A DNA stretch of 64,000 nucleotides from an uncultured Candidatus Saccharibacteria bacterium (lineage in GTDB: Bacteria > Patescibacteriota > Saccharimonadia > Saccharimonadales > Saccharimonadaceae): contig CAZVBM010000002.1 of assembly GCA_964625885.1 (NCBI GenBank), positions 7,537 to 71,536 on the forward strand, given 5' to 3'. The notes beneath the pieces were generated by a model. The model saw only the letters and a list, made by a program, of their open reading frames with translations. It was not told where the DNA came from and ran no database searches. This document shows positions 3,808 to 61,865 of this stretch, one piece after another; position 1 is the stretch's first letter, and every line of letters starts with the position of its first letter. Position numbers and translations under genes: made by a program.

Positions 3808-5274
3808 TTAAAAACTATCAGCTGGCGCCAGACTCTCCAGCCACAATTTTAATTCGCTGACATAAAACTCAGCTGATTCATTTTGCGCCAGAGATTCTAG
3901 CTCTTGCATAAAACTTGGCAACTGACACTGTAGACGTGCCGTGCGCCACTTTTCCCACCTTAGAGCTTCAGCTTCACTTAAACTGCGTGGGAAAGACCGA
4001 GCTTTGTAACCTAAGAACAGTTCTGGCAGGCGCTCATCACTAAACTCAGCTCGATATTCGCGTAGTTCATCGCTCGACAATCGACTAATCTCCTGCGTTC
4101 TTCGCCTATCTGAGTCATCTAAAAACGCATCGTATAATCGCTCTTCAGCAGGAGCTGGCGACTCATCAGTGAATTTCTGTTCGATTTGACGTTCTTTTAA
4201 GTCAGCTAATATATTAATGTTTTGAATCAGCTTTGGATTATCTTGCAAAGTTTTTACACGCTGTTTGATTGTTTCTGGATCAAGTTTCAGACGAGCATAA
4301 TCTTCTTTGCGCAGCACCGACATGGGCGCGACGGCCGGGCAGCGATTGTAGCGCAAAGTTTTAAAATAAACTCGCCTTTCGTTCACTTCTGCGTCATCAT
4401 TTTCGTCATCAGATTTGACATCTTTAAATTTTGAGTATTTAGCAAGAAAAGTGGCAAGTTCGGCAGGGGACTTGTCCAGCAAATCCGCCGGATCATAGCG
4501 CAAATTATAAACCATAATGTTGTTATTTTTACAATCAAAAATAGGGTAGGCGAGGGTAGTTTTTTCAAATTCTGATTCTAGTCGCCCACTGCTATACACA
4601 AACGGCGCTGGATGATCTAAATTAACTAGCTGCTGTACCGACTTTTTGTCGCGCATTTTTAGTAGATACCCCCACATTTTCGGGTCGGACTCTTTAATTA
4701 ACCGCCCCACCCCAATCAACGCCTCGACATCACTCAGAGCGTCATGCGCATGAGTATGCTCAAGATTGTTCAGCTTACTTAACAATTCCAGGCGGTTAGT
4801 TGCTTTGCCCTCGTCGTCAACCGGCCAGTTGATTTTGCCTGGCCGCACGGCGCGCGTAAAACGCACTACGTCGAGTAAGTCCCAACGACTACGACCGTCT
4901 TTATAGGCCCACTCATACGGATCACGAAAATTACGCCAAAATAGATGGCGAATGAACTCATCGTCAAAACGGACGTTATTATAGCCAACCACGATGGTGT
5001 TTGGCGTCAACATCTCGTTTAAAATTAGATCGCAAGCCTCAGCTTCGGTATAGCCTTCTTCAATGGTTTTTTGGGGCGTAATGCCCGTGACGCTGATCGC
5101 CATCGGACTAGGCAAAGTGTCTTCGCTCAGTTTAATTAAAAAATTATACGGCGCGCCAATTGGGTTTAAATCAAGATCGGTGCGCTGAGCGGCAAATTGC
5201 ATGATTCGATCAGAGCGTGGATTAAGTCCACTAGTTTCTAAATCGTAAAAAACAAAGCTTGGCTCAGGCATCAA
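3808..5274 (-). CDS. sbcB: Exodeoxyribonuclease I (SbcB)
   Basis: 488 aa. The N-terminal DEDDh exonuclease motif FVFYDLETSGLNP and the HDALSD motif match Exo I in length and architecture. Confidence 0.85.
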   Translation of the reverse strand: MMPEPSFVFYDLETSGLNPRSDRIMQFAAQRTDLDLNPIGAPYNFLIKLSEDTLPSPMAISVTGITPQKTIEEGYTEAEACDLILNEMLTPNTIVVGYNNVRFDDEFIRHLFWRNFRDPYEWAYKDGRSRWDLLDVVRFTRAVRPGKINWPVDDEGKATNRLELLSKLNNLEHTHAHDALSDVEALIGVGRLIKESDPKMWGYLLKMRDKKSVQQLVNLDHPAPFVYSSGRLESEFEKTTLAYPIFDCKNNNIMVYNLRYDPADLLDKSPAELATFLAKYSKFKDVKSDDENDDAEVNERRVYFKTLRYNRCPAVAPMSVLRKEDYARLKLDPETIKQRVKTLQDNPKLIQNINILADLKERQIEQKFTDESPAPAEERLYDAFLDDSDRRRTQEISRLSSDELREYRAEFSDERLPELFLGYKARSFPRSLSEAEALRWEKWRTARLQCQLPSFMQELESLAQNESAEFYVSELKLWLESLAPADSF

Positions 5275-9476: not shown

Positions 9477-11081
9477 TTACTGCAAATCTACACTAACAGT
9501 TATGCGATCAATATTGTTTGGCACACGGCGCACCCACATTGGTCGAAAATCAACCGTAACCGTCTCAATACCATCGATTGCCTCGTAGCGATCCTGGATC
9601 TCGCCATGACTCTTCCCTTTGGCGAATTCTTTGATTTCGTCGATGCTGACATCTGGTCCAATGCGCACCTGAGTAATAACCTTTACCGAGACAGCACCAT
9701 CTTTGGAAGTGAAGTCATCAAATTGCAACTGGTCGTCGCCCGACTGATAAACTTTTTGCTTAACTCGAGTCTCCTGCTCCTGTTTTAGCACTAGTTGGTC
9801 GATATACTCTACTAGACGACCGCGAACAACCGCCGTCAACGAGTATTTAACCGTTTGCTCAAGCGTCGCTTTGTTCTCGGGAGCCTCTTTACCAACTTCA
9901 ATCGAACTCTTGGCTTCGCCAGCTTCAATCTTAAGGCTTTCATTTATAACCACCGCCGAAGCATCAAATTTGTTTTTCAACTCACTCAGCGCCTCTTCCT
10001 TGCCAAGTTCGGCGATCTTTTCTTTGGCGGCATTGACGTCAGCTTCTGTTATAACCTTAACCACTCGATCAGTTCCGCCAGTCATATCCGAGCCATAGCC
10101 AGTAACGTAACCAATGGATGATTTATGGTCGCCTTCTTTAATGTTACAAGTCGCGCCCGGAGCGGTTGCAACAACCGCCACGGTTTTACGATCTGGCTTG
10201 GGGTCGAAAATTGAGCCGGTTGGACGCGCCAACGACACCGCCTCCTGCGTCACAAAAGTACAGCCGTCTTTACTAAAACTCGCTCCCGCTGGTACGGTAA
10301 CGGCCACCATGGCCGTGTTAGTAATAGTCATCTTACCCTGCGCCTTTTCGCCCACGTTTTTATCGCCAGTTGCCGCGAATTCCAGCTTGCGACTTTTTTC
10401 TAAAACCTGTGATTGGGCGTGAACAATATGATTGTCGTGATTTGTTTTAGATGAGTCTTCAGTCAATTGGACCACCTGACTGACGTTGACTAACTTAGTT
10501 TTGGTCTTCAAAACAATTGAAGCTTCGGGCGCAAAGACCAAAGCCCAAACTAGGCCGGCCGCTAGTAGCAACAAGAATACTGCCGACCAGATTAACTTCT
10601 TGCGAGCACCACTGAGCTTAGCCAAGAAACCTGACTTAACAGGCTTATCTATCGGCGGCTGGGGTGTAGGATCAGTCGGGTCATCAATAACGTCGGCCGT
10701 AGAAACTTTGGCGTTATTTTTTAGCGACGGACTGGCCGCCACCAATTCACCAACTGGCATGGTCTCACCATCAATTAAGTCGTCTTCCGGTTTGTCAATC
10801 GGCAGCTTAGCCAACACTGGCTTAGACTGTAAGGTCTTAGCCACTGGTATCTTCGCCATGGCAGCTAGTTTTGACAACGAATCTTTCGTTGTAATAATTA
10901 CAATATATTTCTTGGCTTCTTTGGCTGCCCGTGCCAATAAGTGTAAATTAACCGCACTTTGCAACAGGCCAATCTGCTTAGGCGGCACCAGGGCAACGAT
11001 TTTTTCCTTAGAATGCTTAATCTTCTCGATCACACTAGTGATATCATCGTTTATATCAATATAGACTACTTCTTTACTCAT
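9477..11081 (-). CDS. Hypothetical bitopic membrane protein (534 aa) immediately downstream of ftsA
   Basis: Long ORF with a central TM helix (LIWSAVFLLLLAAGLVWALVFAP). Its start overlaps the ftsA stop by 1 nt. I recognise no family. Confidence 0.7.
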   Translation of the reverse strand: MSKEVVYIDINDDITSVIEKIKHSKEKIVALVPPKQIGLLQSAVNLHLLARAAKEAKKYIVIITTKDSLSKLAAMAKIPVAKTLQSKPVLAKLPIDKPEDDLIDGETMPVGELVAASPSLKNNAKVSTADVIDDPTDPTPQPPIDKPVKSGFLAKLSGARKKLIWSAVFLLLLAAGLVWALVFAPEASIVLKTKTKLVNVSQVVQLTEDSSKTNHDNHIVHAQSQVLEKSRKLEFAATGDKNVGEKAQGKMTITNTAMVAVTVPAGASFSKDGCTFVTQEAVSLARPTGSIFDPKPDRKTVAVVATAPGATCNIKEGDHKSSIGYVTGYGSDMTGGTDRVVKVITEADVNAAKEKIAELGKEEALSELKNKFDASAVVINESLKIEAGEAKSSIEVGKEAPENKATLEQTVKYSLTAVVRGRLVEYIDQLVLKQEQETRVKQKVYQSGDDQLQFDDFTSKDGAVSVKVITQVRIGPDVSIDEIKEFAKGKSHGEIQDRYEAIDGIETVTVDFRPMWVRRVPNNIDRITVSVDLQ

Positions 11082-12349
11082 CAGATTCTCAATATTTTAT
11101 TTAGTTTCTCTTTAAAGTTTAAATCATCCGAATCATCGACCTGCGTAGTGTCCTGTCCAACTCGTAAGAGCCCCATGGCAGTAATGAAAGTGTGGTCGCT
11201 AATTGTATCAGTGGCATCCTTGATGTCAATTACATCACTCGGCAAGATTCGCTTCACTACCGGCCGCTTGCTAAACGGAATATCCTCTGGCCAGTCGTGC
11301 TCAGCTAGCGCATTCACTAGCATTTCTAAGCTAGCGCCGCCGCCGCACAGCCAAATCTGATTGGGCATCTGATCAACATCAACAAACTCACTTAGCGCTA
11401 ACTCAACCCCGGCTAGCCAAACATTAAGCGTCTTATTAAGTGCCGTCATGGCATCTTTGCGAATATCAGCATTTAGTTTTGGATTATCAATAATCAGTTT
11501 AATATTCTCTGCTTCTTCTAGCGAAACATTAGCCTCTTGCGAAATCGTTCGGGTGAAGCTGCGACCACCAATACTAAACATCTTGGTACCCTCAACGCCA
11601 CCGTCATTAACCACAGCCACGTCAGTCGTACCACCACCGATATCAGCCAAGATTGCCGTAAAGCTACTACTGGCATCGGTGCCGATCACTGCTCGCGACA
11701 CCGCAAACGGCTCGGCCGCTACGGCAATCAGCTCTAGCGCTAACTCGTCAGAGACACGCTCCAGGGCGCCAATATGCACCATAGGGGCAAAAGCTGTATA
11801 AATCTGCACCGCCACGTCGCGCCCTTGAAAGCCAATCGGATTTGAAACCTTGTAACCATCAATATGGAGTGAGACTAGGGCCGAATTGACTAATTTGACT
11901 TCAACATTTTCGTTGCCAGTTTCTAAACCGATTTGCCGCTGCGCCTTAACCAGAGCGTGATCCTGAACCTTGTTAATAATATAGTTCATCTCGTCTTCGT
12001 CTAGCTCTTTGTCGGGCTGAGGTCGACGATAACGAATGGTGTGAGTCACACCCTTGACTAATTCACCAGAAATGCCAATCACCACCCGCTTAGCTTGAAA
12101 GCCGGCCTGCTCTTCGGCTTGGTGTAGGGCCTGCTCACAGTTTTGCACCACACCAGAAATATCAGCAATCGCCCCAGCATGCATATCGCTTTGTTTCTGT
12201 CTGGCTCGGCCGACACCAACAATTTTTAAGTTATCACCATCAACTAGGGCTATTAGAGCCTTGATATATTCGGTACCAATATCCAAACCGACAATAGCGT
12301 TATCGGCGTCTTTATTCTCTTTGCGTTTGGCGCGCAATTTATCAAACAT
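11081..12349 (-). CDS. ftsA: Actin-like cell division protein FtsA
   Basis: ASKHA motifs (VGLDIGTEYIK; DIGGGTTDVAVV; LCGGGASL) and a C-terminal amphipathic tail (FKEKLNKILRI). A PilM-type alternative is not excluded. Confidence 0.7.
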   Translation of the reverse strand: MFDKLRAKRKENKDADNAIVGLDIGTEYIKALIALVDGDNLKIVGVGRARQKQSDMHAGAIADISGVVQNCEQALHQAEEQAGFQAKRVVIGISGELVKGVTHTIRYRRPQPDKELDEDEMNYIINKVQDHALVKAQRQIGLETGNENVEVKLVNSALVSLHIDGYKVSNPIGFQGRDVAVQIYTAFAPMVHIGALERVSDELALELIAVAAEPFAVSRAVIGTDASSSFTAILADIGGGTTDVAVVNDGGVEGTKMFSIGGRSFTRTISQEANVSLEEAENIKLIIDNPKLNADIRKDAMTALNKTLNVWLAGVELALSEFVDVDQMPNQIWLCGGGASLEMLVNALAEHDWPEDIPFSKRPVVKRILPSDVIDIKDATDTISDHTFITAMGLLRVGQDTTQVDDSDDLNFKEKLNKILRI

Positions 12350-12395: not shown

Positions 12396-14273
12396 CTACT
12401 GCAAAACTGCTTTGACGCGGCGGACACCCGCTGAAGATGACTCTTCTTTGGTAATCTTAAATCTTTCGCCATTTGGCGCAATGTCGCCAGTGTTGGTAAC
12501 ATGTGGACCACCACAAATTTCATAGCTAAAACGTTTATCGCTTTCGCCAACCGCATAAACCTTCACCTTGTCGCCGTAGCGATCCATAAAATCGCCATGG
12601 GCGCCGCGCTTTTTGGCCTCGCTGAGCAGCATTTCTTCAAAACTAACTGGTAATTTATCGGCAATCGCTTGATTGACTAGTTTTTCAATTTCGTCTAGCT
12701 TATCGCGACTGACTTTTTCTGGGTAGTTAAAATCAAACCTAAGTCGCTCGTCAGTGATGTTTGAACCTTTTTGATTAACATCCTCGCCTAAAACTCGTTT
12801 CATCGCTGCTAGCATCAAATGAGCTGCGGTGTGTAGGCGAACTTGCTTGTCAGTCTGTCCTTCTAGGCCGCCCTTAAACATACCCTTAGAAGCTGTCTGA
12901 CTGCGCTCGCGTTGCTCTTGTAAAGCCCCGTCGTAATCAGCCTGCCAATCGCCCACTAATTTAATTTGTTGGCGCTTGGCCTCCTCTAGCGACAATTCGA
13001 GCGGAAAGCCATAGGTGTCGTAAAGCTTAAACAGCTCCACGCCAGTTAGTCCTGATGCTTTTAGGCGATCAAGCTGGCGCAAGCCATTGCGCAAGGTGCG
13101 GCGAAAAGTCGCTTCTTCGTTAACTAAAATCTGCAGAACCTCAGCTTTTTTGGCAGCAAATTCTGGATAGCCATTCTCGTAAGCCTCAATAATAACTGGC
13201 ACAACCTGCTCGAAGAAGCTACTCTCAATACCGAGTGCAAAGGATTTTACCATGGCGCGACGAACAAAACGACGCATTACATAGCCATGCTCTTTGTTGC
13301 TCGGCACACAGCCATCAACCGCTAACCAAACCGCGCTACGCAAATGGTCAGTTATGATTCGCATCGCTTGGGTGTTGTCAGTATAAGTTTGACCACTAAC
13401 TTCTTCTAATTTTTTAATAATCGGCTGGAACAGACTACCCTGGAAAACATCTGGCGTATCGAGCTTAGCCGCTACAATACGCTCGAGCCCAGCACCAAAA
13501 TCGATATTCTTCTGCTTTAATGGCTCAAAACTACCATCTTCTAGTCGCCGATACTCCATAAAGACTTGATTGCCAATTTCCATAAACCTGCCGCCGTCGC
13601 TAGCTGGATGCGATTTACCAAAACTTGGATCCTGGTTCTCCTCACCAAAATCATAAAAGACTTCGCTGTCTGGCCCACACGGATCGCTAATCGGCGTCTT
13701 TTCAATGCCGCCACCACGACTCCACCAGTTTTCTTTATCGTCATAGAGGAAGATCCGGCCGCCTTGCAAACCGAGCTCATCACCAATCTTAGCGTCGCCA
13801 ACCTCAACCACCTTGGCGTCAATGCCGACCTCTTTAAACAACTCCTGCCAAATCTCTACCGCCTCGGTATCAGCCGGAATACCATATTTTTTATTACCAA
13901 TGAAACAGGTGGCGTAGATCTTGTTTGGATCAAGGCCGACGACCTGCGTCAAGAACTCGAAAAACCATCTGATTTGCTCTTTTTTACCATAATCACCCAA
14001 GCTCCAGTTGCCGAGCATCTCAAACACTGTTGTGTGGCGGTTATCACCAACGTCGTCGATGTCCTGAGAACGCAAAGATGGCTGACTGTCGGTTAAGCGT
14101 CGGCCCTGCGGGTGGTCCTTGCCCAATAAATAAGGCATCAGTGGCTGCATACCCGAGCCAGTAAACAAGGTCGTCGGATCGTCTTTCAAAACCAGCGGCG
14201 CCCGTGCGATTAACTTGTGCCCATGTTTAATAAAAAAATCTAAATAAGCTTGGCGAATTTCATTTGTTGTCAT
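12396..14273 (-). CDS. alaS: Alanine-tRNA ligase, short form (about 625 aa)
   Basis: N-terminus IRQAYLDFFIKHGH, class II core, editing-domain HTAAHLM and CGGPHV motifs. The start is probably the second Met (MTTNEIR); the track ORF extends to 14285. It ends soon after the editing domain. Confidence 0.92.
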   Translation of the reverse strand: MTTNEIRQAYLDFFIKHGHKLIARAPLVLKDDPTTLFTGSGMQPLMPYLLGKDHPQGRRLTDSQPSLRSQDIDDVGDNRHTTVFEMLGNWSLGDYGKKEQIRWFFEFLTQVVGLDPNKIYATCFIGNKKYGIPADTEAVEIWQELFKEVGIDAKVVEVGDAKIGDELGLQGGRIFLYDDKENWWSRGGGIEKTPISDPCGPDSEVFYDFGEENQDPSFGKSHPASDGGRFMEIGNQVFMEYRRLEDGSFEPLKQKNIDFGAGLERIVAAKLDTPDVFQGSLFQPIIKKLEEVSGQTYTDNTQAMRIITDHLRSAVWLAVDGCVPSNKEHGYVMRRFVRRAMVKSFALGIESSFFEQVVPVIIEAYENGYPEFAAKKAEVLQILVNEEATFRRTLRNGLRQLDRLKASGLTGVELFKLYDTYGFPLELSLEEAKRQQIKLVGDWQADYDGALQEQRERSQTASKGMFKGGLEGQTDKQVRLHTAAHLMLAAMKRVLGEDVNQKGSNITDERLRFDFNYPEKVSRDKLDEIEKLVNQAIADKLPVSFEEMLLSEAKKRGAHGDFMDRYGDKVKVYAVGESDKRFSYEICGGPHVTNTGDIAPNGERFKITKEESSSAGVRRVKAVLQ

Positions 14274-14327
14274 AATTAAACACATTCTAGCACATCAGAG
14301 ATAGGCCAACAAACTAGACTGATTAGT

Positions 14328-16088
14328 TTATTTAAGTTTTTGAGTAGTTAGGCCACCCCACTCCACTACTGTAAAACCACGACGTGGCGTACTAACGAGT
14401 TCTTGTGACTGAATTGAGATTGGTCGTTCTAAGCCGGACATATCCAGAAAAACTCGGATTAACGTGTCGGGCTTTGGCGTAATCTTTAGTGGCGCTAAAC
14501 GATTAAGCTCATCAGTATTAAACCAAGTTAATCTAATATAAGGCGAGTCTGGTATTTTATCACCCCAGAAATCCATAAAATCACTAATTTCTTTAGTGTT
14601 TAGACCAAGCTTAACCAATTGATTTTGTATAGTAGCTAACGCATCGGATTGTTTGACTACTGTTCCTGACGTAATTGCAGGATAGCGACCATGCCCATTA
14701 CCCTCCCAAAACAATGAATCATATTTTGCGCCCTGGTAAACCAAGCTGCCGTTTGGATACGCTAACACATCACGCCAACCGTTAACTGGATAGAGCGGGT
14801 CAGAAATGGTCACATCAGCTCCAACTACTACGCTAACCTTTGTTTTAACCTCAGGATATAGATAAATGACTGGCTTAGCACAACCGTATGTTGGAGCGTA
14901 GCTACCTCTAACATAAACTAGTTTTTCACCTTGCTTATTCTTTATAATCATTAAACCGTGATTATTGATGTATTCATCAAATGCTATAACAGCGCTACTA
15001 TCGTATGAATCCTTGTATTCTTTATAAGCTTTTTGGTACAAATCAGCTTGTCGATTAATTAATTCATAAACAGCATTACCCTGGCCGGTTTGACCGATTT
15101 GTCGCAATTGATCATCGGATAAATTATCAACTCTGGTAGCAGAGGCTATTACCGTGCCACAACCCTGCGCAACAGGCAAAAGAGAATCGTAGCCACCCAC
15201 GCCAGAGCCATTATTACTTTTCATGGAAACATTGTCGTTAAATGAGTAGCCGTCCAATGACAACTCATTCGGTTCGTATCGCATCGTAATTCGAGTTTTA
15301 ATTGGTGTTTCTAAAAAATAAGCTATATTAGTTAATCCGGTATCTGCATATGTCGTCTCTGATTTAATAAGTGAACTCTGGCCAAACTTATCTACCACCG
15401 TCTCTTTAACTCCATTGACAGAATCTTTTGAATCAAATTTCTCTCCCAGGTAGAAGATTGGCGGTCGATAAACCGACTCGCCCGACTCAGAAAAAACTAA
15501 ATTTGGTGGCACACTAAGAGAATCAAAACGAGTTTCAGTATCAAAAACTGTCACCTTGTCTGTAGCCAGACCTTTTATAATGTCAATTACATTAACGCCA
15601 CCATCTTGAGGTTGACCAATAGCCACAACCTTATCATCACGCTTTTCAAATAAGAATAGGTTGGAAGCGCCTTGGCCAACACCAGGATCAAAGACCAACA
15701 CGATAGTGTTGCCATTACGCTTGCCAACCTCTTTGTAGGTCGGCATATTATCCTTTAATTGTTGCGCAACACTATAGTATTCATCATCATTATAATAAGA
15801 CCCAAACTCAGTTTTTAGCCAACCAGCTGGCACTATAGTCTTTGGGCTACTAAACCAAACCTCACCAGTAGTAGAATTAAAAATCTTAGATACTTCTGGA
15901 TTATCTGAAGACTGTAGGGAATTATTTGACGACTTGGATTTAATTATAATTATTATTAATAAGACAATAATCACCAAGACCGCTACAACTATCGAAACAA
16001 TCCGAATTCGCCGCTTTTTATCAACACTACCACTATTAACCGGAACATCCGAGATATTTGTTCCCCCACCAAGCTCGTCGTTATTCAT
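14328..16088 (-). CDS. Hypothetical membrane-anchored extracytoplasmic protein (586 aa)
   Basis: Long ORF with an N-terminal TM helix (IVSIVVAVLVIIVLLIIIII). No recognisable catalytic motif. Confidence 0.7.
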   Translation of the reverse strand: MNNDELGGGTNISDVPVNSGSVDKKRRIRIVSIVVAVLVIIVLLIIIIIKSKSSNNSLQSSDNPEVSKIFNSTTGEVWFSSPKTIVPAGWLKTEFGSYYNDDEYYSVAQQLKDNMPTYKEVGKRNGNTIVLVFDPGVGQGASNLFLFEKRDDKVVAIGQPQDGGVNVIDIIKGLATDKVTVFDTETRFDSLSVPPNLVFSESGESVYRPPIFYLGEKFDSKDSVNGVKETVVDKFGQSSLIKSETTYADTGLTNIAYFLETPIKTRITMRYEPNELSLDGYSFNDNVSMKSNNGSGVGGYDSLLPVAQGCGTVIASATRVDNLSDDQLRQIGQTGQGNAVYELINRQADLYQKAYKEYKDSYDSSAVIAFDEYINNHGLMIIKNKQGEKLVYVRGSYAPTYGCAKPVIYLYPEVKTKVSVVVGADVTISDPLYPVNGWRDVLAYPNGSLVYQGAKYDSLFWEGNGHGRYPAITSGTVVKQSDALATIQNQLVKLGLNTKEISDFMDFWGDKIPDSPYIRLTWFNTDELNRLAPLKITPKPDTLIRVFLDMSGLERPISIQSQELVSTPRRGFTVVEWGGLTTQKLK

Positions 16089-38880: not shown

Positions 38881-38957
38881 GCACCCGTAGCTCAGCGGAT
38901 TAGAGTACTTGGCTTCGAACCAAGGGGCCGCAGGTTCGAGTCCTGCCGGGTGCACCA
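38881..38957 (+). tRNA. tRNA-Arg (anticodon UCG), CCA encoded
   Basis: Hand-folded: acceptor GCACCCG/CGGGTGC, anticodon loop CTTCGAA, T-arm GCAGG-TTCGAGT-CCTGC. Confidence 0.9.
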
Positions 38958-39335
38958 TCCTCCGTCGCTATCCGTTGGATAGCTATGGAGGATTTTTTGT
39001 ACATCTAGGTAGGGCGAGAACCTGACTCGCCAGTTGGCGGGAGGTTCGGCGTAGCGCAGCGAAGCGAAAAAGTGTTTACATTTTTTCGCAAGCAAGCGAA
39101 GGAGCGAGCAAAGCGAGCGATGTCCTGCCGGGTGCACCATTAAAAAATAGCTACATTGTGGCCATTTTTTAATGGTCTATACCCAGACAGATTTGATTCT
39201 GCGGCGCGGCAGATTTAGCTGACGCAAGCCGCAGGTTCGGCGGAGGCGAAATGAGAAAAGAAAGCACTGTAGGTATTTTCTTTTCGAATGAGCCAGAGGA
39301 GGCAAAGCCGATGTCCTGCCACGCACCCATCACCC
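38958..39335 (+). repeat. Two tandem tRNA-Arg-matched units, each ending in a copy of the tRNA 3' part
   Basis: gtcctgccgggtgcacca (38940-38957) is repeated exactly at 39122-39139 and degenerately at 39313-39329. T-stem 5' copies lie at 39038-39049 (diverged) and 39228-39240 (12/13). Confidence 0.85.
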
Positions 39336-54220: not shown

Positions 54221-54646
54221 CTATTTCTTATCTAGCTTATTGCTAATTTCGCCCAAGTAGCGGTAGATCTTGATAATGATCATCGCAAACTGGAAGGTGA
54301 TCCATAGCGCAATATTACCAACAACCAAGGTTAATAGGAACGCTAAGAAGCTAGCACTAATTAACTCGAAAGAGATTAAAGTGGTGAACAAAGCCATGGC
54401 TAGGTAGACTAATTTAAGAATCGCTTCAACCCGTAGACGCTTGAAGTTAACGAAGTCGTGTAACTTGACCGCAAAACCCTTAAACTTGTCACGTGACTGA
54501 CGAGCAAAGAAGAAATAGATTACTAAAGCACCAACAATCGCCAGAACCAGAGCGATAATACCCCAGATCGACAGCGCCGACAACAAGACCGGGCTTGAAG
54601 TGGTGACACGAGTGGTTGGATAATCTAAACCATAACTACTATACAT
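54221..54646 (-). CDS. Hypothetical polytopic membrane protein (141 aa)
   Basis: ORF with 3-4 hydrophobic helices and SD AAGGAAG. Confidence 0.6.
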   Translation of the reverse strand: MYSSYGLDYPTTRVTTSSPVLLSALSIWGIIALVLAIVGALVIYFFFARQSRDKFKGFAVKLHDFVNFKRLRVEAILKLVYLAMALFTTLISFELISASFLAFLLTLVVGNIALWITFQFAMIIIKIYRYLGEISNKLDKK

Positions 54647-54758
54647 ATCTTCCTTTCATTAAATTATTTTAATCATATGTTAATCTAATAATTTTTGCAA
54701 CTGGCAAAGCTCACAGCCTTGATTTTATTAGCAAAATCTACTATACTTTGTACCTAAT

Positions 54759-54835
54759 CGGGGCGTGGCGCAGCTTGGTAGCGCGCGCGGTTTGGGACCG
54801 TGAGGTCGCAAGTTCAAATCTTGTCGCCCCGACCA
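54759..54835 (+). tRNA. tRNA-Pro (anticodon UGG), CCA encoded
   Basis: Hand-folded: acceptor CGGGGCG/CGCCCCG, anticodon loop TTTGGGA, T-arm GCAAG-TTCAAAT-CTTGT. Confidence 0.9.
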
Positions 54836-55030
54836 AATAAAATTAGTCACCTTCATGGTGGCTGATTTTATTTGACCACGGAATGGTGAGTTGAACTTGC
54901 GACGTTTTGCGCCAGCAAAACAAGTCGCAAGTCGTGAAGTGAGTGAAGCGAGTGAAAAGCAGGCCGAAGGCTTGTTTTTCCGAGCGAACGAGCGGAAGAG
55001 CGAGTAATACGAGCGATAATCTTGTCCCAA
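54836..55030 (+). repeat. tRNA-Pro(UGG)-matched trailer unit
   Basis: Elements in order: a terminator-like hairpin at 54836-54876; ttgaacttgcgac (54891-54903), the inverse of the tRNA T-arm 5' side; the inner hairpin gttttgcgccagcaaaac; a direct copy gtcgcaagt (54924-32); a central hairpin GAAAAGC..G.TTTTTC (54954-80); and a 3' copy aatcttgtc (55018-26). Confidence 0.8.
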
Positions 55031-55036
55031 ATATTG

Positions 55037-55121
55037 TATAATTAGAGCATCTGAGCGAAAAGCGAAACCTTGTTTCAGCTTTTCCGAAGATGTGAATAAT
55101 TACACGTAGTATAATCAAGCT
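55037..55121 (+). promoter_or_regulatory. Conserved promoter/hairpin module upstream of the deacetylase gene (copy 2 of 2)
   Basis: Order of elements: TATAAT (55037-42), a hairpin catct...GAAAAGC..GCTTTTC...agatg (55048-55092), then TATAAT (55110-15), then the GTG 6 nt later. Confidence 0.65.
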
Positions 55122-56567
55122 GTGAGAAAGAAATTAGAACTCTTTAAACAAAGATTAGGCAGGCTAGTCAAAAACGACAAGACTCCCTACTTATTTATCC
55201 TTCTCAGTGGCGTGATTTTTCTAGCCCTGGCTTATATCTTTCAAGAAAATGGCATCGGTCTAACTAGTAGACAAGCCTACTTAAAAAACTCCGCCTATAA
55301 CGGCGTCAGCAGCAACTTTGTAACCGAACAAAAATGGCACCTTAAATCACAACGCGAATATCCAATTACTTCAAACAATGATGTCAACCAAAAACTGGCT
55401 CAAAAAATTAATAATTTCCATCAGGAGTATTTGAATCGTCTTAAAAACAAAACTCACAAATTGAGCTACGAAGAAAACACTAGCTTTAGCGTCACCTACA
55501 ATCGCAACCAACTGCTATCAATATCAATTAATTCCGTACAAGATTCAGACAATAAGACCGTCACTATGTTGACTGATTCGGAAACCTTTGACCTAACCAC
55601 CGGAAAGCCAATCGGCCTAGCCGACATATTTATCAACACTGATTGCTTACACTCCAGAGCTCTACCAGATCTACGCCAGCTGGTTGTCAAGGAAATTCAG
55701 CAAGCGAAGCCAGATTTTGATTCTAATAAGTTAAGCCAGACACTAACGGTAGAATTAGCTAATAATTTTCTAGTTCATCAAGATGGTAGTTTTCAATTTG
55801 AGTTTACGCCAGAAAAGCTTGGCGCCGATTTCAATGGCAGAATAGTCGTAAACTTGCCGGCAACCCGCTACTTATCAAGCATAAAACCAGATCTAGCCAA
55901 GAGGTTATTTGACCAAGCGGTCATCGACCTCAACTCACCCGAGAGTCCGCAAAACCGATCGGGATTTTGCAGCAAGAACCCATGCGTCGCCCTGACTTTC
56001 GACGACGGACCGAGCGACCAAACTCCCCAAATTCTAGATATTCTGCAAAAATACAATGTCAAAGCTACTTTCTTTGTTTTGGGTAAAAAAGCTCACGATC
56101 ACCCTGACATTATTAAGCGACAAATTGATGAGGGACATCAAGTAGGCTATCACGGCTGGAACCACACCGCCTTTAACCGATTGAGGCCTGAGCAAATCCA
56201 TGACGAACTCAATCGCACCGACGAGATTTTTCGAGCTAATAATTACATCTCAAGAGTAGCTCGACCACCTTATGGAACATTAAATCAAAAATCCATTGAT
56301 GTTTTACGCGATCGCAATCAAGATATTATCCTATGGTCGGTTGACCCGCGCGACTGGGATGTCAAGGACGCCGAGCAAATCTACAACCGCGTCATAACCG
56401 CCAGCCACAACGGCGCCATTATTTTACTCCACGATATTTACCCCAGCACCGCTGATGCAGTCGAGCCAATTATTAATTATTTTCAAAACAACGGCTTTTA
56501 CTTAGTAACCGCCAATACACTACTTGGCGACGTGCCACCATCTGGCAGTATTTATCGCCGACGCTAG
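55122..56567 (+). CDS. Membrane-anchored polysaccharide/peptidoglycan deacetylase (NodB domain) with an N-terminal DUF3298/RsiV-like region
   Basis: TM helix (YLFILLSGVIFLALAYIF). NodB motifs TFDDGP, HGWNH and LLHD. Only a GTG start is available. Confidence 0.82.
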   Translation: MRKKLELFKQRLGRLVKNDKTPYLFILLSGVIFLALAYIFQENGIGLTSRQAYLKNSAYNGVSSNFVTEQKWHLKSQREYPITSNNDVNQKLAQKINNFHQEYLNRLKNKTHKLSYEENTSFSVTYNRNQLLSISINSVQDSDNKTVTMLTDSETFDLTTGKPIGLADIFINTDCLHSRALPDLRQLVVKEIQQAKPDFDSNKLSQTLTVELANNFLVHQDGSFQFEFTPEKLGADFNGRIVVNLPATRYLSSIKPDLAKRLFDQAVIDLNSPESPQNRSGFCSKNPCVALTFDDGPSDQTPQILDILQKYNVKATFFVLGKKAHDHPDIIKRQIDEGHQVGYHGWNHTAFNRLRPEQIHDELNRTDEIFRANNYISRVARPPYGTLNQKSIDVLRDRNQDIILWSVDPRDWDVKDAEQIYNRVITASHNGAIILLHDIYPSTADAVEPIINYFQNNGFYLVTANTLLGDVPPSGSIYRRR

Positions 56568-56589
56568 TTCTATGATAAAATTAGAAAAT

Positions 56590-56665
56590 CGGGATGTGGC
56601 GCAGTTGGTAGCGCGCACGGCTGGGGGCCGTGAGGTCGCCTGTTCAAGTCAGGTCATCCCGACCA
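56590..56665 (+). tRNA. tRNA-Pro (anticodon GGG), CCA encoded
   Basis: Hand-folded: acceptor CGGGATG/CATCCCG, anticodon loop CTGGGGG, T-arm GCCTG-TTCAAGT-CAGGT. Confidence 0.88.
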
Positions 56666-56747
56666 TCCTCCTTCGCTGTCTTCTGGACAGCTACGGAGGA
56701 TGCAGTCCGTAGCCTTTGGCGAAGGAGTGCATTTTATCAACACGCAT

Positions 56748-56824
56748 CGGGGCGTGGCGCAGCTTGGTAGCGCGCACCGTTCGGGACGGTGAGGTCGCCT
56801 GTTCAAATCAGGTCGCCCCGACCA
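56748..56824 (+). tRNA. tRNA-Pro (anticodon CGG), CCA encoded
   Basis: Hand-folded: acceptor CGGGGCG/CGCCCCG, anticodon loop TTCGGGA, T-arm GCCTG-TTCAAAT-CAGGT. Confidence 0.9.
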
Positions 56825-57282
56825 TAAAAATTGACTCACCTTTTGGTGGGTCAATTTTTATCTGTTGCGCGCAACATGTTTGACTGGCGACCTTTTGCGT
56901 AGCAAAAATTGGTCGCCTGTCGTGGAGTGAACGAAGCGAAGAAAAGCGCGTAGCATTTTTCTGAGCGAGTGAACGGAGGAGCGAAACGAAGTGGAGCGAT
57001 AATCAGGCCTGATACTATCGTAATATTGGTGGCTGATTTTATTTGGCCACGGAGTGGTGAGTTGAACAGGCGTGCCTGTTCGCGAATGAACTCAGCCTAC
57101 ATACGATCATGTGACCGGTTTAATAATTACTTTGAAGGGAATCTCGCAGTTACGACGGAGAGCTTAGCGCAGACGGCCCTGTAACGACAGGCGCCGTCAA
57201 GTGTCCCTGAAAAGTAATTATTAAATATCAGGTCGTATTAGAAATAGACAAGCAGGGTGGACGAAGCCCATAATCAGGCCCT
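56825..57282 (+). repeat. Three tandem tRNA-Pro(CGG)-matched units. The middle one carries the type-2 structured insert.
   Basis: Partial T-loop/T-stem 3' copies lie at 57001-57009 (aatcaggcc), 57225-57235 (atatcaggtcg) and 57270-57281 (ataatcaggccc). T-stem 5' copies are ggtcgcctgt (56911-20) and gcctgttcg (57074-82). Confidence 0.8.
57117..57235 (+). ncRNA. Candidate structured element (type-2 insert), copy 1. Strand and RNA status unproven.
   Basis: A 21-bp closing helix (ttaataattactttgaaggga / tccctgaaaagtaattattaa, with 2 mismatches) encloses a core that is about 85% identical to 61247-61310. Confidence 0.5.
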
Positions 57283-58756
57283 AAAACAACTTCTCACCGT
57301 AAATTTCATTTTCTAACTCATCATGATCATGACACCAAACCTGCGCAATAAACTGACTTTTCTTAGCTAATTTATCATTGTTCCACGGTGGCAAGAAACA
57401 TTCCGGACACCAATGCCCAGTTTTTAAGACTAAATACGGACTGGCCTCAAATTCGTGACCTTCGGAACAAACCCATTTCAATTTAGTTTGCAAATCGCCC
57501 TTTTTCATTTTATTAGACAAACAGTCGCCACCACGAAACTGAGCGGCTCGCTTCATATCAGCCAAATCTAACTGGTCTAACGGTTTTGTTTCATCATAAC
57601 CATGGTCTAATTTTGAATGCGCTTCATCGTGCACTAAACTAAAACCATCCCAGCCACCAGGAATCGCCTGCCATTTTTCAACCGAGCCAAAGAAAGCCTT
57701 AAATTTAGCCACTTCACCATGTTTTAGCCAATAGAGTGGCGCATTGGGCCGGTTGGCACGCGGTAACATAAAGAATCGCTTTACCAAACTAGCTGGGATA
57801 TATTTCAGTAATTTTAATTTGAGCGGTAGATCTCGTTTAATCTCTGCCAAAACATCATCAACCGTTTCGGTTCGAAAGTCTAAATAATTATTTAAATCAT
57901 CGGAATCCAAATACCACATGCCATGAAAATTACGCAGCGCATACCAATTTGGCTGTTCTAATGATTTAAGATCCACCCCTAACATACGATAAAACTTGTC
58001 TAAAAATTCAAAGGCCGTCAAGCGATTGGCCGCGCCACCACCAATATTATAGACTCGGCTCCAGAATCCACTAGGTAGCTCTTTGGTGCAGAGATTGTAT
58101 AGCAGCCGACCAGAATCACGCGCCGTAATCCACTCCAAGCTATTGTTGAGTGGCTGATGATAACTAATACCATCGTCCACCGCAAAAATATCTTTGTGTA
58201 TAATGCCCGTCTGACGGAGCGACACCCACTGCTTTATACCAGATTCAATCACATAACGTTCAGCTGCCACTTTGGAAATGGAATAATAGTCAAAAGCACT
58301 CGGTAGTAGTGGATCGCCGACTCGCCCCCAGTGGACTGGAATTGGCCGATTGCCATACTGACCAATACTACCAATGTAAACAAATTTAGTTGTTTCACCC
58401 TGCCCAAGTTCTATCACCGCATCGACTAAGTTTTTTGTGCCACCAAAATTAATTCGCCAGGCTAGTTTTGGACGCGTATCGGCCATCGGCGAGACCAACG
58501 CCGCAATATGCAAAACAATATCTATCCCAGATACAGCCTTTTTAACATCGTCATAATTGGTTAAATCACCCCAAACAATTTTAATATCTAGATTATCTTG
58601 ATAGGGCGCCAAGACCTTCTTGTCTGACTCACTTGGCAAAGAGAATATTACCAAATCAAATTGGTCAGTCTTTTCAGCCAATTGACGCAAAGCCTCACGC
58701 CCCATATTGCCAGTCGCGCCGGTTAAAAGAACCTTGGTTTTTTTAGCTTGACTCAT
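57281..58756 (-). CDS. NAD-dependent epimerase/dehydratase (extended SDR) with a C-terminal Cys-rich, zinc-ribbon-like domain
   Basis: Rossmann motif LLTGATGNMG and catalytic YSISK (YxxxK). C-terminal WVCSEGHEFE...GHWCPEC. Confidence 0.75.
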   Translation of the reverse strand: MSQAKKTKVLLTGATGNMGREALRQLAEKTDQFDLVIFSLPSESDKKVLAPYQDNLDIKIVWGDLTNYDDVKKAVSGIDIVLHIAALVSPMADTRPKLAWRINFGGTKNLVDAVIELGQGETTKFVYIGSIGQYGNRPIPVHWGRVGDPLLPSAFDYYSISKVAAERYVIESGIKQWVSLRQTGIIHKDIFAVDDGISYHQPLNNSLEWITARDSGRLLYNLCTKELPSGFWSRVYNIGGGAANRLTAFEFLDKFYRMLGVDLKSLEQPNWYALRNFHGMWYLDSDDLNNYLDFRTETVDDVLAEIKRDLPLKLKLLKYIPASLVKRFFMLPRANRPNAPLYWLKHGEVAKFKAFFGSVEKWQAIPGGWDGFSLVHDEAHSKLDHGYDETKPLDQLDLADMKRAAQFRGGDCLSNKMKKGDLQTKLKWVCSEGHEFEASPYLVLKTGHWCPECFLPPWNNDKLAKKSQFIAQVWCHDHDELENEIYGEKLF

Positions 58757-58831
58757 TACACTTAATTGTACATCAAAATTTTAACCCAAAGAAAAATCGG
58801 GCTTAACGCCCGATTTGGAGAAATAATTTGC

Positions 58832-59110
58832 TTAAATGGCAAGTTCTAAATCCGAAATGTACGCACCAATTTCGGCAGACTGCTTTTCAAGACTTTCTAG
58901 CTCACTCTCGACGTTGTCGGTAGAGCGACCATCATTCTGCAACTCGGCAAGCAACTCGCACTGCTTGACGTACCTGTTGTGGACGCACTCCAGTGCCTCA
59001 TTAGCTTCCCTTAGTTTGCGATCCCTAAACTCGACAGCCTCATGGTCCAAGCCACGAGAGAGGTAATCGGCTATCATGGTTAACGCTCTTGTGTCTATAT
59101 CATATTTCAT
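58832..59110 (-). CDS. Small hypothetical helical protein (92 aa)
   Basis: SD GGAGGG, its own TATAAT and its own terminator (58793-58818). Heptad-like charged sequence. Confidence 0.55.
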   Translation of the reverse strand: MKYDIDTRALTMIADYLSRGLDHEAVEFRDRKLREANEALECVHNRYVKQCELLAELQNDGRSTDNVESELESLEKQSAEIGAYISDLELAI

Positions 59111-59205
59111 AACATAGCCCTCCTTTTTGTACTAGCACCCTTACGAGCGCCTCATCCTACAATTATAGCATAAAAATGTATAAATATCAAATAAAAGCCG
59201 GGTTT

Positions 59206-59448
59206 TTACCCGGCATTGAGCATTTCGCCAAAAGTTTCTAGCTCGGCAATAAAATGAGAAATAGTTTCAATTTTAGCCTCAATACTCTTACGATCTTTTG
59301 CTGAAGCGGTTTCATATTGTTCGTCTAGTTTTTTTAACTCAGCTCGACTCTCGCCAAGGACCCGATTCATCAAATCTCGTGCCTTGTCCCGCTCATCCAA
59401 AAGAAACAGTTTGTTTAGTTCGATCCTAACGTCATCACGATACAGCAA
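59206..59448 (-). CDS. Small hypothetical helical protein (80 aa, TTG start). Possible paralogue of the 58832 ORF.
   Basis: SD GGAGGGA before the TTG. It shares the leader motif ggtgctagtaYaa with the neighbouring small gene. Its own terminator (aaagccgggtttttacccggc) overlaps the 3' end. Confidence 0.5.
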   Translation of the reverse strand: MLYRDDVRIELNKLFLLDERDKARDLMNRVLGESRAELKKLDEQYETASAKDRKSIEAKIETISHFIAELETFGEMLNAG

Positions 59449-59533
59449 TCAAACTCCCTCCTTCGCTTATACTAGCACCAAAAAGCGCCACAACCATCAT
59501 ACAGTCATAGCGCTTTTATATCAAGCAGGCTAT

Positions 59534-61045
59534 TTATTTGGCGTATTCTTCGGCGCGAGTTTCGCGCACGACATTAACCTTAATCACACCCGGATATTGC
59601 ATAGTGCTTTCGATTTTTATAGCAATATCGCGCGCCAATTTAATAGCTGACAAATCATCGACTTTTTCCGGTTTAACAATCACACGTAGCTCGCGACCGG
59701 CTGAGATCGCATAAGACTTCTCAACACCAGGAAAGGCGTTGGCAACATTTTCCAAGTCGCGCATGCGCTCCACAAAGTTTTCACTTGAAATGTTGCGTGC
59801 GCCTGGCCGAGCGGCTGAAACCGCATCAACTACACGTACCACCAGAGCTTCTGTTGTAGTAGCTTCGATATCCTCGTGGTGCGCTTCCATGGCGTGCGCT
59901 ATCTCTTTTGACATGCCATATTTACGAGCTAATTCAGCGCCAATTACATGGTGCTTGCCTTCAATCTTATGCGTCACCGCCTTGCCAATATCGTGGAATA
60001 GGGCGGCTGTCTTGGTGATTTTGACATCAGCACCAATTTCCTCAGCAATTTGCCCGGCTAATTGGGCCATTTCAATTGAGTGCTTCAAAACGTTTTGGCC
60101 ATAAGACGTACGATATTTTAATTCACCGAGCAGGTGCAGCATCTCGCGCGGCATGCCAATCAATCCAACCTCACGCGCTGCGTCTTCACCAGCCCTCACA
60201 ATTTCTTTATCAATTTCTTTTTCAGCTTTAACAACTACTTCTTCAATGCGAGAGGGGTTAATGCGCCCATCTTTCATCAAGAGCTCAAGCGCTAGACGAG
60301 CTACTTGGCGACGCACTGGATCAAACGAGCTCAACACTACCATGCCAGGGGTTTCGTCGATTAAAATGTCAACACCGGTGGCGCGTTGCAAGGTCTGGAT
60401 GTTTCGCCCCTCCTTACCAATAATTCGCCCTTTCATTTCATCATCCGGCAACTCTACTGACGTTACTGTGTGTTCAGAAGTGACTTCTGAGCTCATGCGC
60501 TCCATAGCGCCTAATAAAATCATCTGAGCACTCTCTTCGGCCGCCTCAGTCGCTTCGTTCTTTAATTTACTAATCAAACCAGTCAAGTCGTCTTTGACGT
60601 TCTTTTCAGTCATGTCAAGCAGCTTTTGACGTGCCTCGTCCTTAGTCAATTTAGCAATTTTCTCCAATTTTTCTTCTTGCTTTTGGCGAATATCTAAAAC
60701 CGCATTCTTTAGATCTTCCAACTCTTGTGTCTGTTGGCGCAAAGAATCCATCTTTTCATCGGCCTGCTCGTTCTTTTTATCAAGTAGAGCCTCACGCTCA
60801 GTTAGGCGACTTTCGACGCGGTCCAGTTCTTTGCGACGACTAGCCTCATCACGCTTAGCCTGTTCTAAAACCTTATCGGCGTTACTTTGAGCTTCTTTGG
60901 CTAATTTGCGCGCCTTATCTTCGGCTTCTTTTACTAAATCGTCAGCCTTTTGCTGGTGTTTTTTCGCCTTGGTCGTCAAGACACCATAAGCCGCGCCACC
61001 ACCAATAGCTAGGCCAGCTAGCGAGGCAATCACTATTTCTATCAT
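59534..61045 (-). CDS. rny: Ribonuclease Y
   Basis: N-terminal TM, long coiled coil, KH domain (IGKEGRNIQ) and HD domain (LFHDIGKA). Confidence 0.95.
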   Translation of the reverse strand: MIEIVIASLAGLAIGGGAAYGVLTTKAKKHQQKADDLVKEAEDKARKLAKEAQSNADKVLEQAKRDEASRRKELDRVESRLTEREALLDKKNEQADEKMDSLRQQTQELEDLKNAVLDIRQKQEEKLEKIAKLTKDEARQKLLDMTEKNVKDDLTGLISKLKNEATEAAEESAQMILLGAMERMSSEVTSEHTVTSVELPDDEMKGRIIGKEGRNIQTLQRATGVDILIDETPGMVVLSSFDPVRRQVARLALELLMKDGRINPSRIEEVVVKAEKEIDKEIVRAGEDAAREVGLIGMPREMLHLLGELKYRTSYGQNVLKHSIEMAQLAGQIAEEIGADVKITKTAALFHDIGKAVTHKIEGKHHVIGAELARKYGMSKEIAHAMEAHHEDIEATTTEALVVRVVDAVSAARPGARNISSENFVERMRDLENVANAFPGVEKSYAISAGRELRVIVKPEKVDDLSAIKLARDIAIKIESTMQYPGVIKVNVVRETRAEEYAK

Positions 61046-61220
61046 AAAACCCTTTCATCTGGGCGATCGTTTTCATCGCCTGTAAAAATATTCTTAAATC
61101 CGCGTCTTCGTCAAAAAATGGTCACTAAACGCTAATTAGATTGTAGCACAAAGCCATTTAGCGCGCGACTAATTATTAAAACCGACAACTAGTTTGCGTC
61201 ATTGTCCTTTATTCCGTACG

Positions 61221-61335
61221 GCCAGTTCAACAACTCACCAGCAGACAATCTCGCAGTTACGACGAGAGTTTAGCGCGAGCAGCCCTGTGACGACAGGCGC
61301 TGCCGACGCGTGTCTGATGGGGAGTTGTTGAACAT
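61221..61335 (+). ncRNA. Candidate structured element (type-2 insert), copy 2, embedded in an orphan tRNA-Pro-like T-arm. Strand unproven.
   Basis: ggccagttcaa | insert | catcaggcc. The closing helix gttcaacaactcaccagcagac / gtctgatggggagttgttgaac is unrelated in sequence to that of copy 1, while the core is conserved. Confidence 0.5.
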
Positions 61336-61490
61336 CAGGCCGTGGGTTAGCCTGGATTGGGGCTTTCAACCGACCAGCTCTCCAGAGACGTTTGACCACG
61401 CCCGTCGTTACGGGGTGGTCTGCACTTCGCTGTCGGTCGTAACCGCCAGAGCCTCTGTCGAGCTGGTTGGTTTACGCCCACTAGGTGACA

Positions 61491-61865
61491 CTATTTACGT
61501 GGTTGGGTGATTACCGCGTCCTGATAATAAATCGGCGTGATTACTTGTGGTGTTGCCTGCTTTTTCAGCAACTCATCACCATCAGCGCGCCAATTTTCGC
61601 CACCGGAACCAACAATTGGAATTTGCAAGCTATCAGCCAAAGTATTCGCCACCGTAATACCGATGCGAAGTGATGTATAGCTACCAGGCCCACGAAACAC
61701 CACAATACCATCAAGATCTGACCACCCCCTACCCTCGCCCCCTAACGACTGTTGTAAAAATTGCAACATATTTTTAGAAAGCTCACGACCAAACTGTTGC
61801 TCGAATAATTTATCGTCGAGCCACAAGCGACACCAGTCATCGGCGGTTTGTAGATATAATTTCAC
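61491..61865 (-). CDS. tsaB: tRNA t6A biosynthesis protein TsaB, N-terminal-domain-only short form
   Basis: GPGSYTSLRIGITVANTLA motif. 124 aa, versus roughly 230 aa for the usual protein (from memory). Overlaps the tsaE stop. Confidence 0.75.
   Translation of the reverse strand: MKLYLQTADDWCRLWLDDKLFEQQFGRELSKNMLQFLQQSLGGEGRGWSDLDGIVVFRGPGSYTSLRIGITVANTLADSLQIPIVGSGGENWRADGDELLKKQATPQVITPIYYQDAVITQPRK

Follow-up and report, generated by a model that had tools for sequence, protein, structure and literature searches.

Among the described systems, the closest to the repeat reported here are the Rickettsia palindromic elements (RPEs), which are ~105-146 bp in length and occur as in-frame fusions within protein genes (Ogata et al., 2000, as listed in PMC3184786), and the bacterial MITEs (miniature inverted-repeat transposable elements) such as Correia/CREE, ERIC and RUP, which possess terminal inverted repeats, target-site duplications and long hairpins and are served by a trans-acting transposase (PMC3184786). 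The present analysis concerns a 64,000-nt stretch (hereafter the window) of an uncultured Candidatus Saccharibacteria bacterium and, within it, a structured element at positions 61216-61345, located between the gene of a TsaB-like protein (tsaB) and that of RNase Y (rny). This element is probably a copy of a non-autonomous, RPE-like, hairpin-forming dispersed repeat which is confined to the gut Saccharibacteria family Nanosyncoccaceae. By analogy, the family would behave like the RPEs of Rickettsia, as a selfish DNA that persists at sites where the damage is slight. To our knowledge, the origin and spread of RPE-type palindromic elements inside essential genes of reduced genomes is unexplained.

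The original prediction had described a structured element at 61221-61335, in the 445-nt gap between tsaB and rny, and both its placement and the identity of the flanking genes were confirmed. The hairpin proper covers 61221-61335 and the repeated unit covers 61216-61345 on the forward strand, with a covariance-model match of 133-145 bits (144.9 bits with a first model and 133.1 bits with a second, built from 39 copies). The fold computed for 61215-61340 is very stable at -61.7 kcal/mol, compared to -38.1 +/- 3.4 for 200 shuffled sequences, none of which was as good (z = -7.0). It takes the shape of a long hairpin with an internal three-way junction, with GGCC...ATCA-GGCC outside the outer stem P1, and it contains the closing helix GTTCAAC...GTTGAAC that had been noticed earlier. 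Read along the unit (GTACGGCC...GGCCGT), the first segment is GGCCA (61220-61224), which reads as the 5' half of a T-stem and precedes the 5' arm of P1 (GTTCAACAACTCACCAGCAGACA, 61225-61247). This is followed by the P2 hairpin (TCTCG-CAGTTACGA-CGAGA, 61249-61267) with its conserved GTTACGAC motif, invariant in the ten copies of the subfamily to which the element belongs (s1), and by the composite P3 hairpin (GCGC..GCAGC-CCTGT-GACG-ACAGG-GCTGC..GCG, 61273-61309), the most conserved part across genera. The 3' arm of P1 (TGTCTGATGGGGAGTTGTTGAAC, 61311-61333) leads into an ATCA bulge and GGCCGT (61334-61343), which read as the 3' end of the T-loop, the 3' half of the T-stem and the start of the acceptor strand of tRNA-Pro(CGG).

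The genome to which the window belongs (739 kb in 23 contigs, Nanosyncoccaceae, with 45 tRNA genes) was searched for further copies by BLAST and with a first covariance model, derived from ten copies. Fourteen copies of a ~125-nt repeat were found, ten of them belonging to s1 and four to a diverged subfamily, s2, and all 14 are intergenic. The copy at 61216-61345 is an ordinary member of its family, with 99% identity over 125 nt to a twin on contig C4 (C4:14296-14420) whose flanks are unrelated, which speaks for a recent duplication. Two other copies lie in the window, namely an s1 copy at 57109-57238 (+; copy A, 131.9 bits with the first model and 121.9 with the second) and an s2 copy at 61356-61483 (-). 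Copy A is situated 285 nt past tRNA-Pro(CGG), inside the trailer of that gene, and 42 nt from the stop of an epimerase-like gene, and it is the sole copy near a tRNA. The other 13 lie 4 to >20 kb from any tRNA or on tRNA-free contigs. The element had initially been termed an orphan copy, which is correct in that no tRNA adjoins it but misleading, as 13 of the 14 family copies are likewise kilobases from tRNAs.

Adjacent inverted s1/s2 pairs are found at three loci: the tsaB-rny spacer, C4:14169-14425 and C13:3399-3680. In addition, an extra 3' half starting exactly at GACAGGC in the P3 loop trails two full copies (C7:34428-34476 and C13:3691-3740), in each case after a similar spacer of 12-13 nt (TTTATAGAATAT / TTTCTAGACATGC). 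In the sister species (G002, a Nanosyncoccaceae metagenome-assembled genome, MAG), a hybrid copy (stretch L049, about 4180-4330) is of s2 type in its 5' half and of s1 type in its 3' half, the two meeting in the P3 loop with a 30-nt insert (TTTGTAGTCCGTAGCCTATGGCGGAGGAGT) at the joint. Such P3-loop breakpoints may reflect a break, or a switch of template, at the P3 hairpin. Possibly another such extra 3' half is present in the window at 57239-57280, and the 'full' copy on C7 is itself a chimera of two subtypes. The 30-nt insert of the hybrid resembles CCTCCGTAGC...GCTACGGAGG hairpins found after tRNA genes in the window at 38954-38993 and 56662-56701.

The distribution of the family was examined with the second covariance model (39 copies), which gave per-genome counts of up to at least 17. 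The distribution is patchy: of the 201 genomes (95 genera) of the same GTDB family that were searched, 36 (17 genera) carry the repeat, with one to at least 17 copies in other genera. When 301 genomes from across the class were sampled, the 18 positive ones again all fell within this GTDB family. The exact pattern CGCAGTYACGACG-N15-40-CCYGTRACGACRGGC was present in 26 stretches among 185,579 species, all of them Saccharibacteria/Nanosyncoccaceae/Nanosyncoccus MAGs, with sheep and goat gut among the sources named in the titles of the records.

Like the RPEs, the family consists of imperfect palindromes of ~125 nt forming a long hairpin, is present in tens of copies in the small, reduced genome of an obligate symbiont, and comes with neither a known transposase nor a clear target duplication. 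It also has in-frame members inside intact essential genes (aminoacyl-tRNA synthetases, helicases and GTPases) in addition to those between genes. These in-frame members are contributed by other genera, whereas the 14 copies of this genome are all intergenic. The likeness is one of behaviour, and Rickettsia belongs to an unrelated phylum; as the core pattern was found only in Saccharibacteria among the 185,579 species, common descent with Rickettsia RPE-1 to RPE-10 is not expected. The family further differs from RPEs in its sequence-conserved, Y-shaped core of two hairpins, each with GU-NACG-AC, which is closed by a long outer stem that differs between lineages, in the restriction of its copies in this genus to intergenic sites, closed in most frames, and in having a subfamily whose ends read as a split tRNA-Pro T-arm.

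In the other genera, matches to the family lie inside long open frames, the hosts of which were identified by Pfam. These hosts are ValRS (in four genomes and at two or more sites), LeuRS, Der, RecG, DnaX, the RNase HII-YraN linker, the Sua5-TrmB linker, UvrD, PriA, a ClpB-like ATPase, YchF (in two genomes), UvrA and a Mur ligase. Aligned with the orthologues of this genome, the copies in Der, LeuRS, the RNase HII-YraN linker, RecG (70 aa) and ValRS (46 aa, flanked by conserved blocks) stand out as clean in-frame inserts. Fifteen of the genic copies are in the sense and six in the antisense orientation. The genic copies are open in two to four of the six frames and those of this genus in none to three (s1 mostly none or one); multiplying the chances of the individual copies over the first eight genic ones gives ~0.004. 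With stop codons in nearly all frames, copies in this genus would be expected to survive only between genes. Different hosts read one nucleotide core as PVATGE, PRDDGR or SSQVS, and the constraint is therefore on the nucleic acid and not on the peptide. The outer stems are unrelated between other genera, while P2, the TTAGCGC joint and P3 persist. It should also be noted that the copies in ValRS, which come from four genera, occur in both orientations, with one genome possessing two adjacent copies in the gene, and that the two YchF copies, from two genomes of one genus, occupy the same site. For ValRS this looks like a hot spot, or like copies flipping in place. RNase HII and a YraN-like UPF0102 domain share one open frame in this genome (C15:8047-8907) and likewise in another genus, where the repeat lies in the linker between the two domains.

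To assess pairing across the family, 39 copies from this genome and its relatives were compared. In an alignment fitted to the model, which favours pairing, 92.8% of paired cells were complementary, compared to 71% in shuffles and 37-49% with the partners slid, and both-sided changes were found in 33 of the 39 pairs, including all 19 pairs of P1. A MAFFT alignment of ten copies agreed with this, 20 of the 39 pairs being compensatory. Mismatches in 18 s1 copies comprised 44 G-U and 21 A-C, 18 of the G-U being derived from one invariant pair; with this pair set aside the two classes are about equal (26 and 21), as expected for a palindrome acting at the DNA level or on two strands. The strand information is weak, and our reading is that pairing is likely maintained without a clear RNA strand.

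With MITEs the family shares its small size, non-coding and dispersed nature, terminal inverted repeats, long hairpin and mostly intergenic location, and its copy number and positions vary between related species. It differs from them in that its conserved part is the internal core and not the inverted ends, and in that the outermost pairs vary yet stay complementary: beyond GGCC, the flanks add zero to three complementary bases (AC/GT, TAC/GTA, ATC/GAT and TC/GA; also CT/AG and CC/GG). Neither a target-site duplication nor a parent insertion sequence (IS) with the same ends, as would be typical of MITEs, was found here. Repetitive extragenic palindromic (REP) sequences, with the associated REPIN and RAYT, and the IS200/IS605-derived PATE are likewise hairpin repeats behind genes. 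As in these systems, a dimeric enzyme acting on single-strand DNA could bind the two similar hairpins of the unit, and the orientation bias could follow replication. The unit is, however, a three-way junction and not a REP doublet, the GTAG-type REP head is absent, and this genome and that of the sister species lack both PF01797 and TnpB.

A number of observations weigh against the interpretation as a dispersed repeat. No target-site duplication was seen, nor any consistent direct repeat in the seven s1 copies whose flanks were examined. The Y1 transposase (PF01797), TnpB (PF07282) and reverse transcriptase (PF00078) are absent from this genome and from the sister species, other transposase families not having been searched; no multi-copy IS was detected, and no repeat >150 bp in the genome is an IS. 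The s1 copies are antisense to the stop-adjacent gene in 9/9 cases here and 6/6 in the sister species, a bias which a purely selfish model alone leaves unexplained. No filled/empty polymorphism was found, the tsaB-rny site being occupied in 10/10 of the contigs listed, from at least four studies, and mobility is thus deduced from between-species comparison only. Finally, one G.U pair is invariant in one orientation and the core is conserved across genera of different G+C content, both of which would also fit a functional RNA. With regard to these points, the only long exact repeat in the genome is the shared C-terminus of two surface-protein paralogues, and the presence of reverse transcriptase in relatives does not track the repeat. 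Eight of the ten s1 copies agree with the GC skew, and the orientation bias may be linked either to replication or to transcription.

These last features raise the question of whether the element might be a functional cis-acting RNA, such as a stabiliser of 3' ends, a processing site, or a terminator or insulator separating tsaB from rny, and repeated behind many genes for its usefulness there, in the manner of REP, ERIC or SPRITE-type sequences. Such a role would suit the invariant G.U pair, the conserved core and the very stable, covarying structure, as well as the position of most copies 7-100 nt past a stop codon in one orientation and the occupancy of the orthologous site in the sister species and in all sampled contigs, where it is fixed. 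It nonetheless seems unlikely. Transcription of the flanking genes gives the reverse complement of the strand bearing the invariant G.U, so that the strand signals disagree, and the other G-U and A-C mismatches are balanced. A T-run is absent after either end, a congener and about 80% of the family genomes do without the element, two copies of the sister species lie between divergent gene starts, and related copies are found within coding regions in sense as well as antisense. Nor does the element correspond to an Rfam family: at the gathering score no match was obtained at the element in a search of the window, and at E <= 1 the region 54600-61700 gave only tRNAs and two chance matches elsewhere.

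Evidence for how the s1 subfamily may have been founded comes from its ends. When the two ends of the unit at 61216-61345 are joined (GCCAGTTCAA|ATCAGGCCG), they match the T-arm of tRNA-Pro(CGG) (GCCTGTTCAAATCAGGTCG) at 17 of 19 positions, with the 3' half ATCAGGCCG accounting for 8/9. This was the best match among the 45 tRNAs and was reached by none of 300 shuffles (shuffle maximum 14-15), although its significance is somewhat overstated because the junction was picked after seeing the data. All s1 copies have in common a start of (NN)GGCCRG-TTCAAY and an end of RTTGRAC-ATCA-GGCC(NN), or -AA-AGGCC. T-arm-like termini are accordingly common to all s1 copies, those at the ten unrelated sites of this genome as well as those of the sister species, where a copy beside tRNA-Arg keeps its Pro-like ends. 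Their occurrence at ten unrelated sites and beside a tRNA-Arg indicates that the T-arm halves belong to the unit and travel with it. The earlier suggestion that the element had moved together with a piece of tRNA-Pro T-arm thus stands in a modified form, the halves being the unit's own termini in all s1 copies.

A genome-wide comparison also bore out the observation that a motif adjacent to tRNA-Pro recurs in the element. The 13-mer TGGTGAGTTGAAC is located in the tRNA-Pro trailers at 54884-54896 and 57055-57067 and in a remnant on contig C8. With a TTG duplication, it is found in both arms of the copy at 61216-61345 and of its C4 twin, and nowhere else in the genome. The family thereby shares with the tRNA-Pro trailers of this genome the T-arm halves and the 13-nt motif, in addition to having one copy in the tRNA-Pro(CGG) trailer. 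It differs from the tRNA-trailer modules and RtT-like repeats in being dispersed away from tRNAs. The founder of s1 would, judging from these sequences, have arisen in a copy of the tRNA-Pro(CGG) T-arm, and this T-arm copy perhaps sat in a tRNA trailer. The other tRNA-trailer inserts in the window were considered as possible family members and ruled out, as the family model does not match them.

The same ends could be interpreted as attL/attR-like junctions, the split T-arm being the footprint of a trans-mobilised miniature integrative element whose recombinase crosses over in the T-loop, with the same system stacking modules behind the tRNA genes of this genome. The 17/19 match to the two tRNA-Pro(CGG) T-arm halves, the sharing of the arm motif TGGTGAGTTGAAC only with two tRNA-Pro trailer modules and the copy inside the tRNA-Pro(CGG) trailer agree with such an origin, which we nevertheless consider improbable. 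The ends carry no direct repeat that could represent a crossover core, the T-arm being split and not duplicated, and they are independent of the neighbouring tRNA, as seen in the Pro-like copy beside tRNA-Arg. Moreover, 13 of the 14 copies are away from tRNA genes, in other genera the members lie within protein genes and their private outer stems are unrelated, and the other tRNA-trailer inserts in the window stand outside the family.

A second possibility raised by the original prediction was that a tRNA-Pro gene had once been present between tsaB and rny, was hit in its T-loop by the element and decayed to the T-arm. The T-arm-like halves flanking the insert and the tRNA-Pro genes 4.4 kb away would be in keeping with this, but the comparison of the tsaB-rny region in six relatives contradicts it and leaves it highly improbable. 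None of the six has a tRNA-Pro, or any other tRNA, in the spacer. The congener G001 (Rny identity of 84%), which has no copies of the repeat, has a spacer of 194 nt; two other genera have spacers of about 210-240 nt with no repeat, and two further genera spacers of about 1.4 and 1.9 kb. The sister species (Rny identity of 93%, at least 17 copies) has a spacer of 498 nt holding the orthologous s1 copy, a 13-nt s2 remnant and the further hybrid copy described above. Subtracting the two repeats from the spacer of this genome leaves 170 + 7 + 10 nt, close to the 194 nt of the repeat-free congener, which fits insertion and counts against a decayed tRNA-Pro. In G001 and G002 the tRNA-Pro(GGG)/(CGG) pair is located beyond the rny stop (by about 370 and 755 nt, respectively) and not upstream of rny. 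At 61046-61490 no tRNA or cloverleaf was detected by ARAGORN or the Rfam tRNA model, the split, T-arm-like 19 nt being the only match, and the flanks outside these ends pair with each other and are not tRNA-like. The same 'T-arm', furthermore, surrounds every s1 copy at the ten unrelated sites.

Returning to the dispersed-repeat interpretation, the comparison with the sister species is informative as to mobility. Of its copies with flanks (n=8), three are at sites also occupied in this genome and four to five are not. The spacers of the two species are about 80% identical at best and are filled with other repeats, and no clean empty site was found among them. The contigs found with an exact TsaB match are all occupied: one of 97 kb agrees with the spacer except for 1 mismatch in 481, and nine short-read contigs, drawn from at least four studies, all terminate within the s2 copy, 41 nt past the tsaB stop. 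In the scan of metagenomes with TsaB, no relative above 62% identity was recovered. Short-read contigs likewise end 140 nt after the epimerase stop, inside a repeat copy; with contig ends fixed inside copies in this manner, the repeat family is a systematic cause of short-read contig breaks. The two copies would have entered the interval from the tsaB stop to the rny promoter region in the common ancestor with the sister species.

A possible course of events can be outlined for the dispersed repeat. The core would have sat in the T-loop of a copy of the tRNA-Pro(CGG) T-arm, the split T-arm becoming the outer end of the unit, and these ends would have been copied along with the core ever since. 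Conservation of the loops points to a protein acting in trans that recognises the hairpins by their sequence, while the P3-loop breakpoints and the complementary but variable outermost pairs would be consistent with hairpin-dependent copying or template switching in place of cut-and-paste. A broader and rather doubtful extension is that the Y-core elements and the tRNA-trailer modules of Saccharibacteria are products of one hairpin-dependent copying system. In such a system the core would land in a hairpin loop (here the tRNA-Pro T-loop), build or extend a private outer stem out of the site of insertion and be copied again together with this stem. A single hairpin-dependent system would explain the split T-arm ends, the lack of target duplications, the P3-loop breakpoints and the in-frame genic copies in either orientation, and, if true, would offer a tractable model for the spread of RPE-type elements.

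In a limited literature search, no published description was found of a family with this combination of a Y-core, lineage-specific stems, in-frame copies and a split-T-arm subfamily. The family occurs in an unrelated lineage of tiny symbionts and possesses properties useful for study, with a searchable conserved core, lineage-specific outer stems, both intergenic and in-frame copies, and one subfamily whose ends betray its founder site, the tRNA-Pro T-arm. It also provides concrete handles, as the conserved hairpin loops may be used as bait for partner proteins and the defined junctions for strain comparison. For annotation, it explains GC-rich, 'ncRNA-like' spacers such as that between tsaB and rny, breaks in short-read contigs and unexpected inserts of ~40 residues in housekeeping proteins of Saccharibacteria.

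As for the locus itself, rny (59534-61045) and tsaB (61491-61865, encoding 124 aa) are both on the minus strand, the latter followed by TsaE and ComEC. The 445-nt spacer is made up of 7 + 128 (s2) + 10 + 130 (s1) + 170 nt. The inverted s2 copy (61356-61483, -), whose end is 7 nt from the tsaB stop, was recognised by BLAST and by the covariance models (61.0 bits with the first and 87.6 with the second). This GC-rich, hairpin-dense stretch is thus a diverged s2 copy and not a separate ncRNA, an identity that had previously been missed. The remaining 170 nt (61046-61215, -) are the native part of the spacer and are conserved with the sister species by alignment; they contain the rny leader and two promoter-like sites, namely TTGACG-16-AATATT at 61114-61087, from a promoter scan, and TGCTACAAT at 61148-61140, read from the sequence. 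Both sites and the conserved 170-nt block separate the element from the ATG of rny. As the element is upstream of both promoter-like sites, it lies outside the rny leader unless tsaB transcripts read through, and the proposal that it forms part of a long rny leader appears unlikely. Neither copy probably has a dedicated role for rny; at most, it may be conjectured that transcripts reading through from tsaB are held back or processed at the two hairpins (about -60 kcal/mol).

Three other candidate features of the spacer were examined and rejected. An intrinsic terminator was ruled out by the absence of a T-run on either side of the element, and a hammerhead-like CUGAUG in the 3' arm by the variation of this segment among copies. 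Truncation of tsaB by the insertion was likewise ruled out, as the 124-aa length and the stop position of TsaB are the same in relatives.

Aside from the above, a 2.7-kb interval separates the tRNA-Pro pair from the rny stop in this genome, compared to 370-755 nt in the congeners. The additional sequence (57281-59448) encodes the 491-aa epimerase-like protein and two small open reading frames (ORFs; 92 and 80 aa) without a Pfam match, and may represent an insertion next to the tRNA trailers. A predicted 216-aa ORF on the minus strand has its TGA stop within the ATCA bulge of the C4 twin (C4:14415-14425) and would thus take its final codons from the repeat. On contig C13, a 1363-bp duplication (9871-11233 and 13144-14506, 100% identical) corresponds to the C-terminal ~450 residues of two paralogues, which are large, secreted-looking surface proteins of 1046 and 886 aa; this may reflect recent gene conversion. 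Finally, the same tandem repeat with a period of ~175 nt (83-90% identity) is found at the ends of three contigs (C2:78806-79302, C7:42035-42654 and C10:23989-24362), where it probably breaks the assembly.

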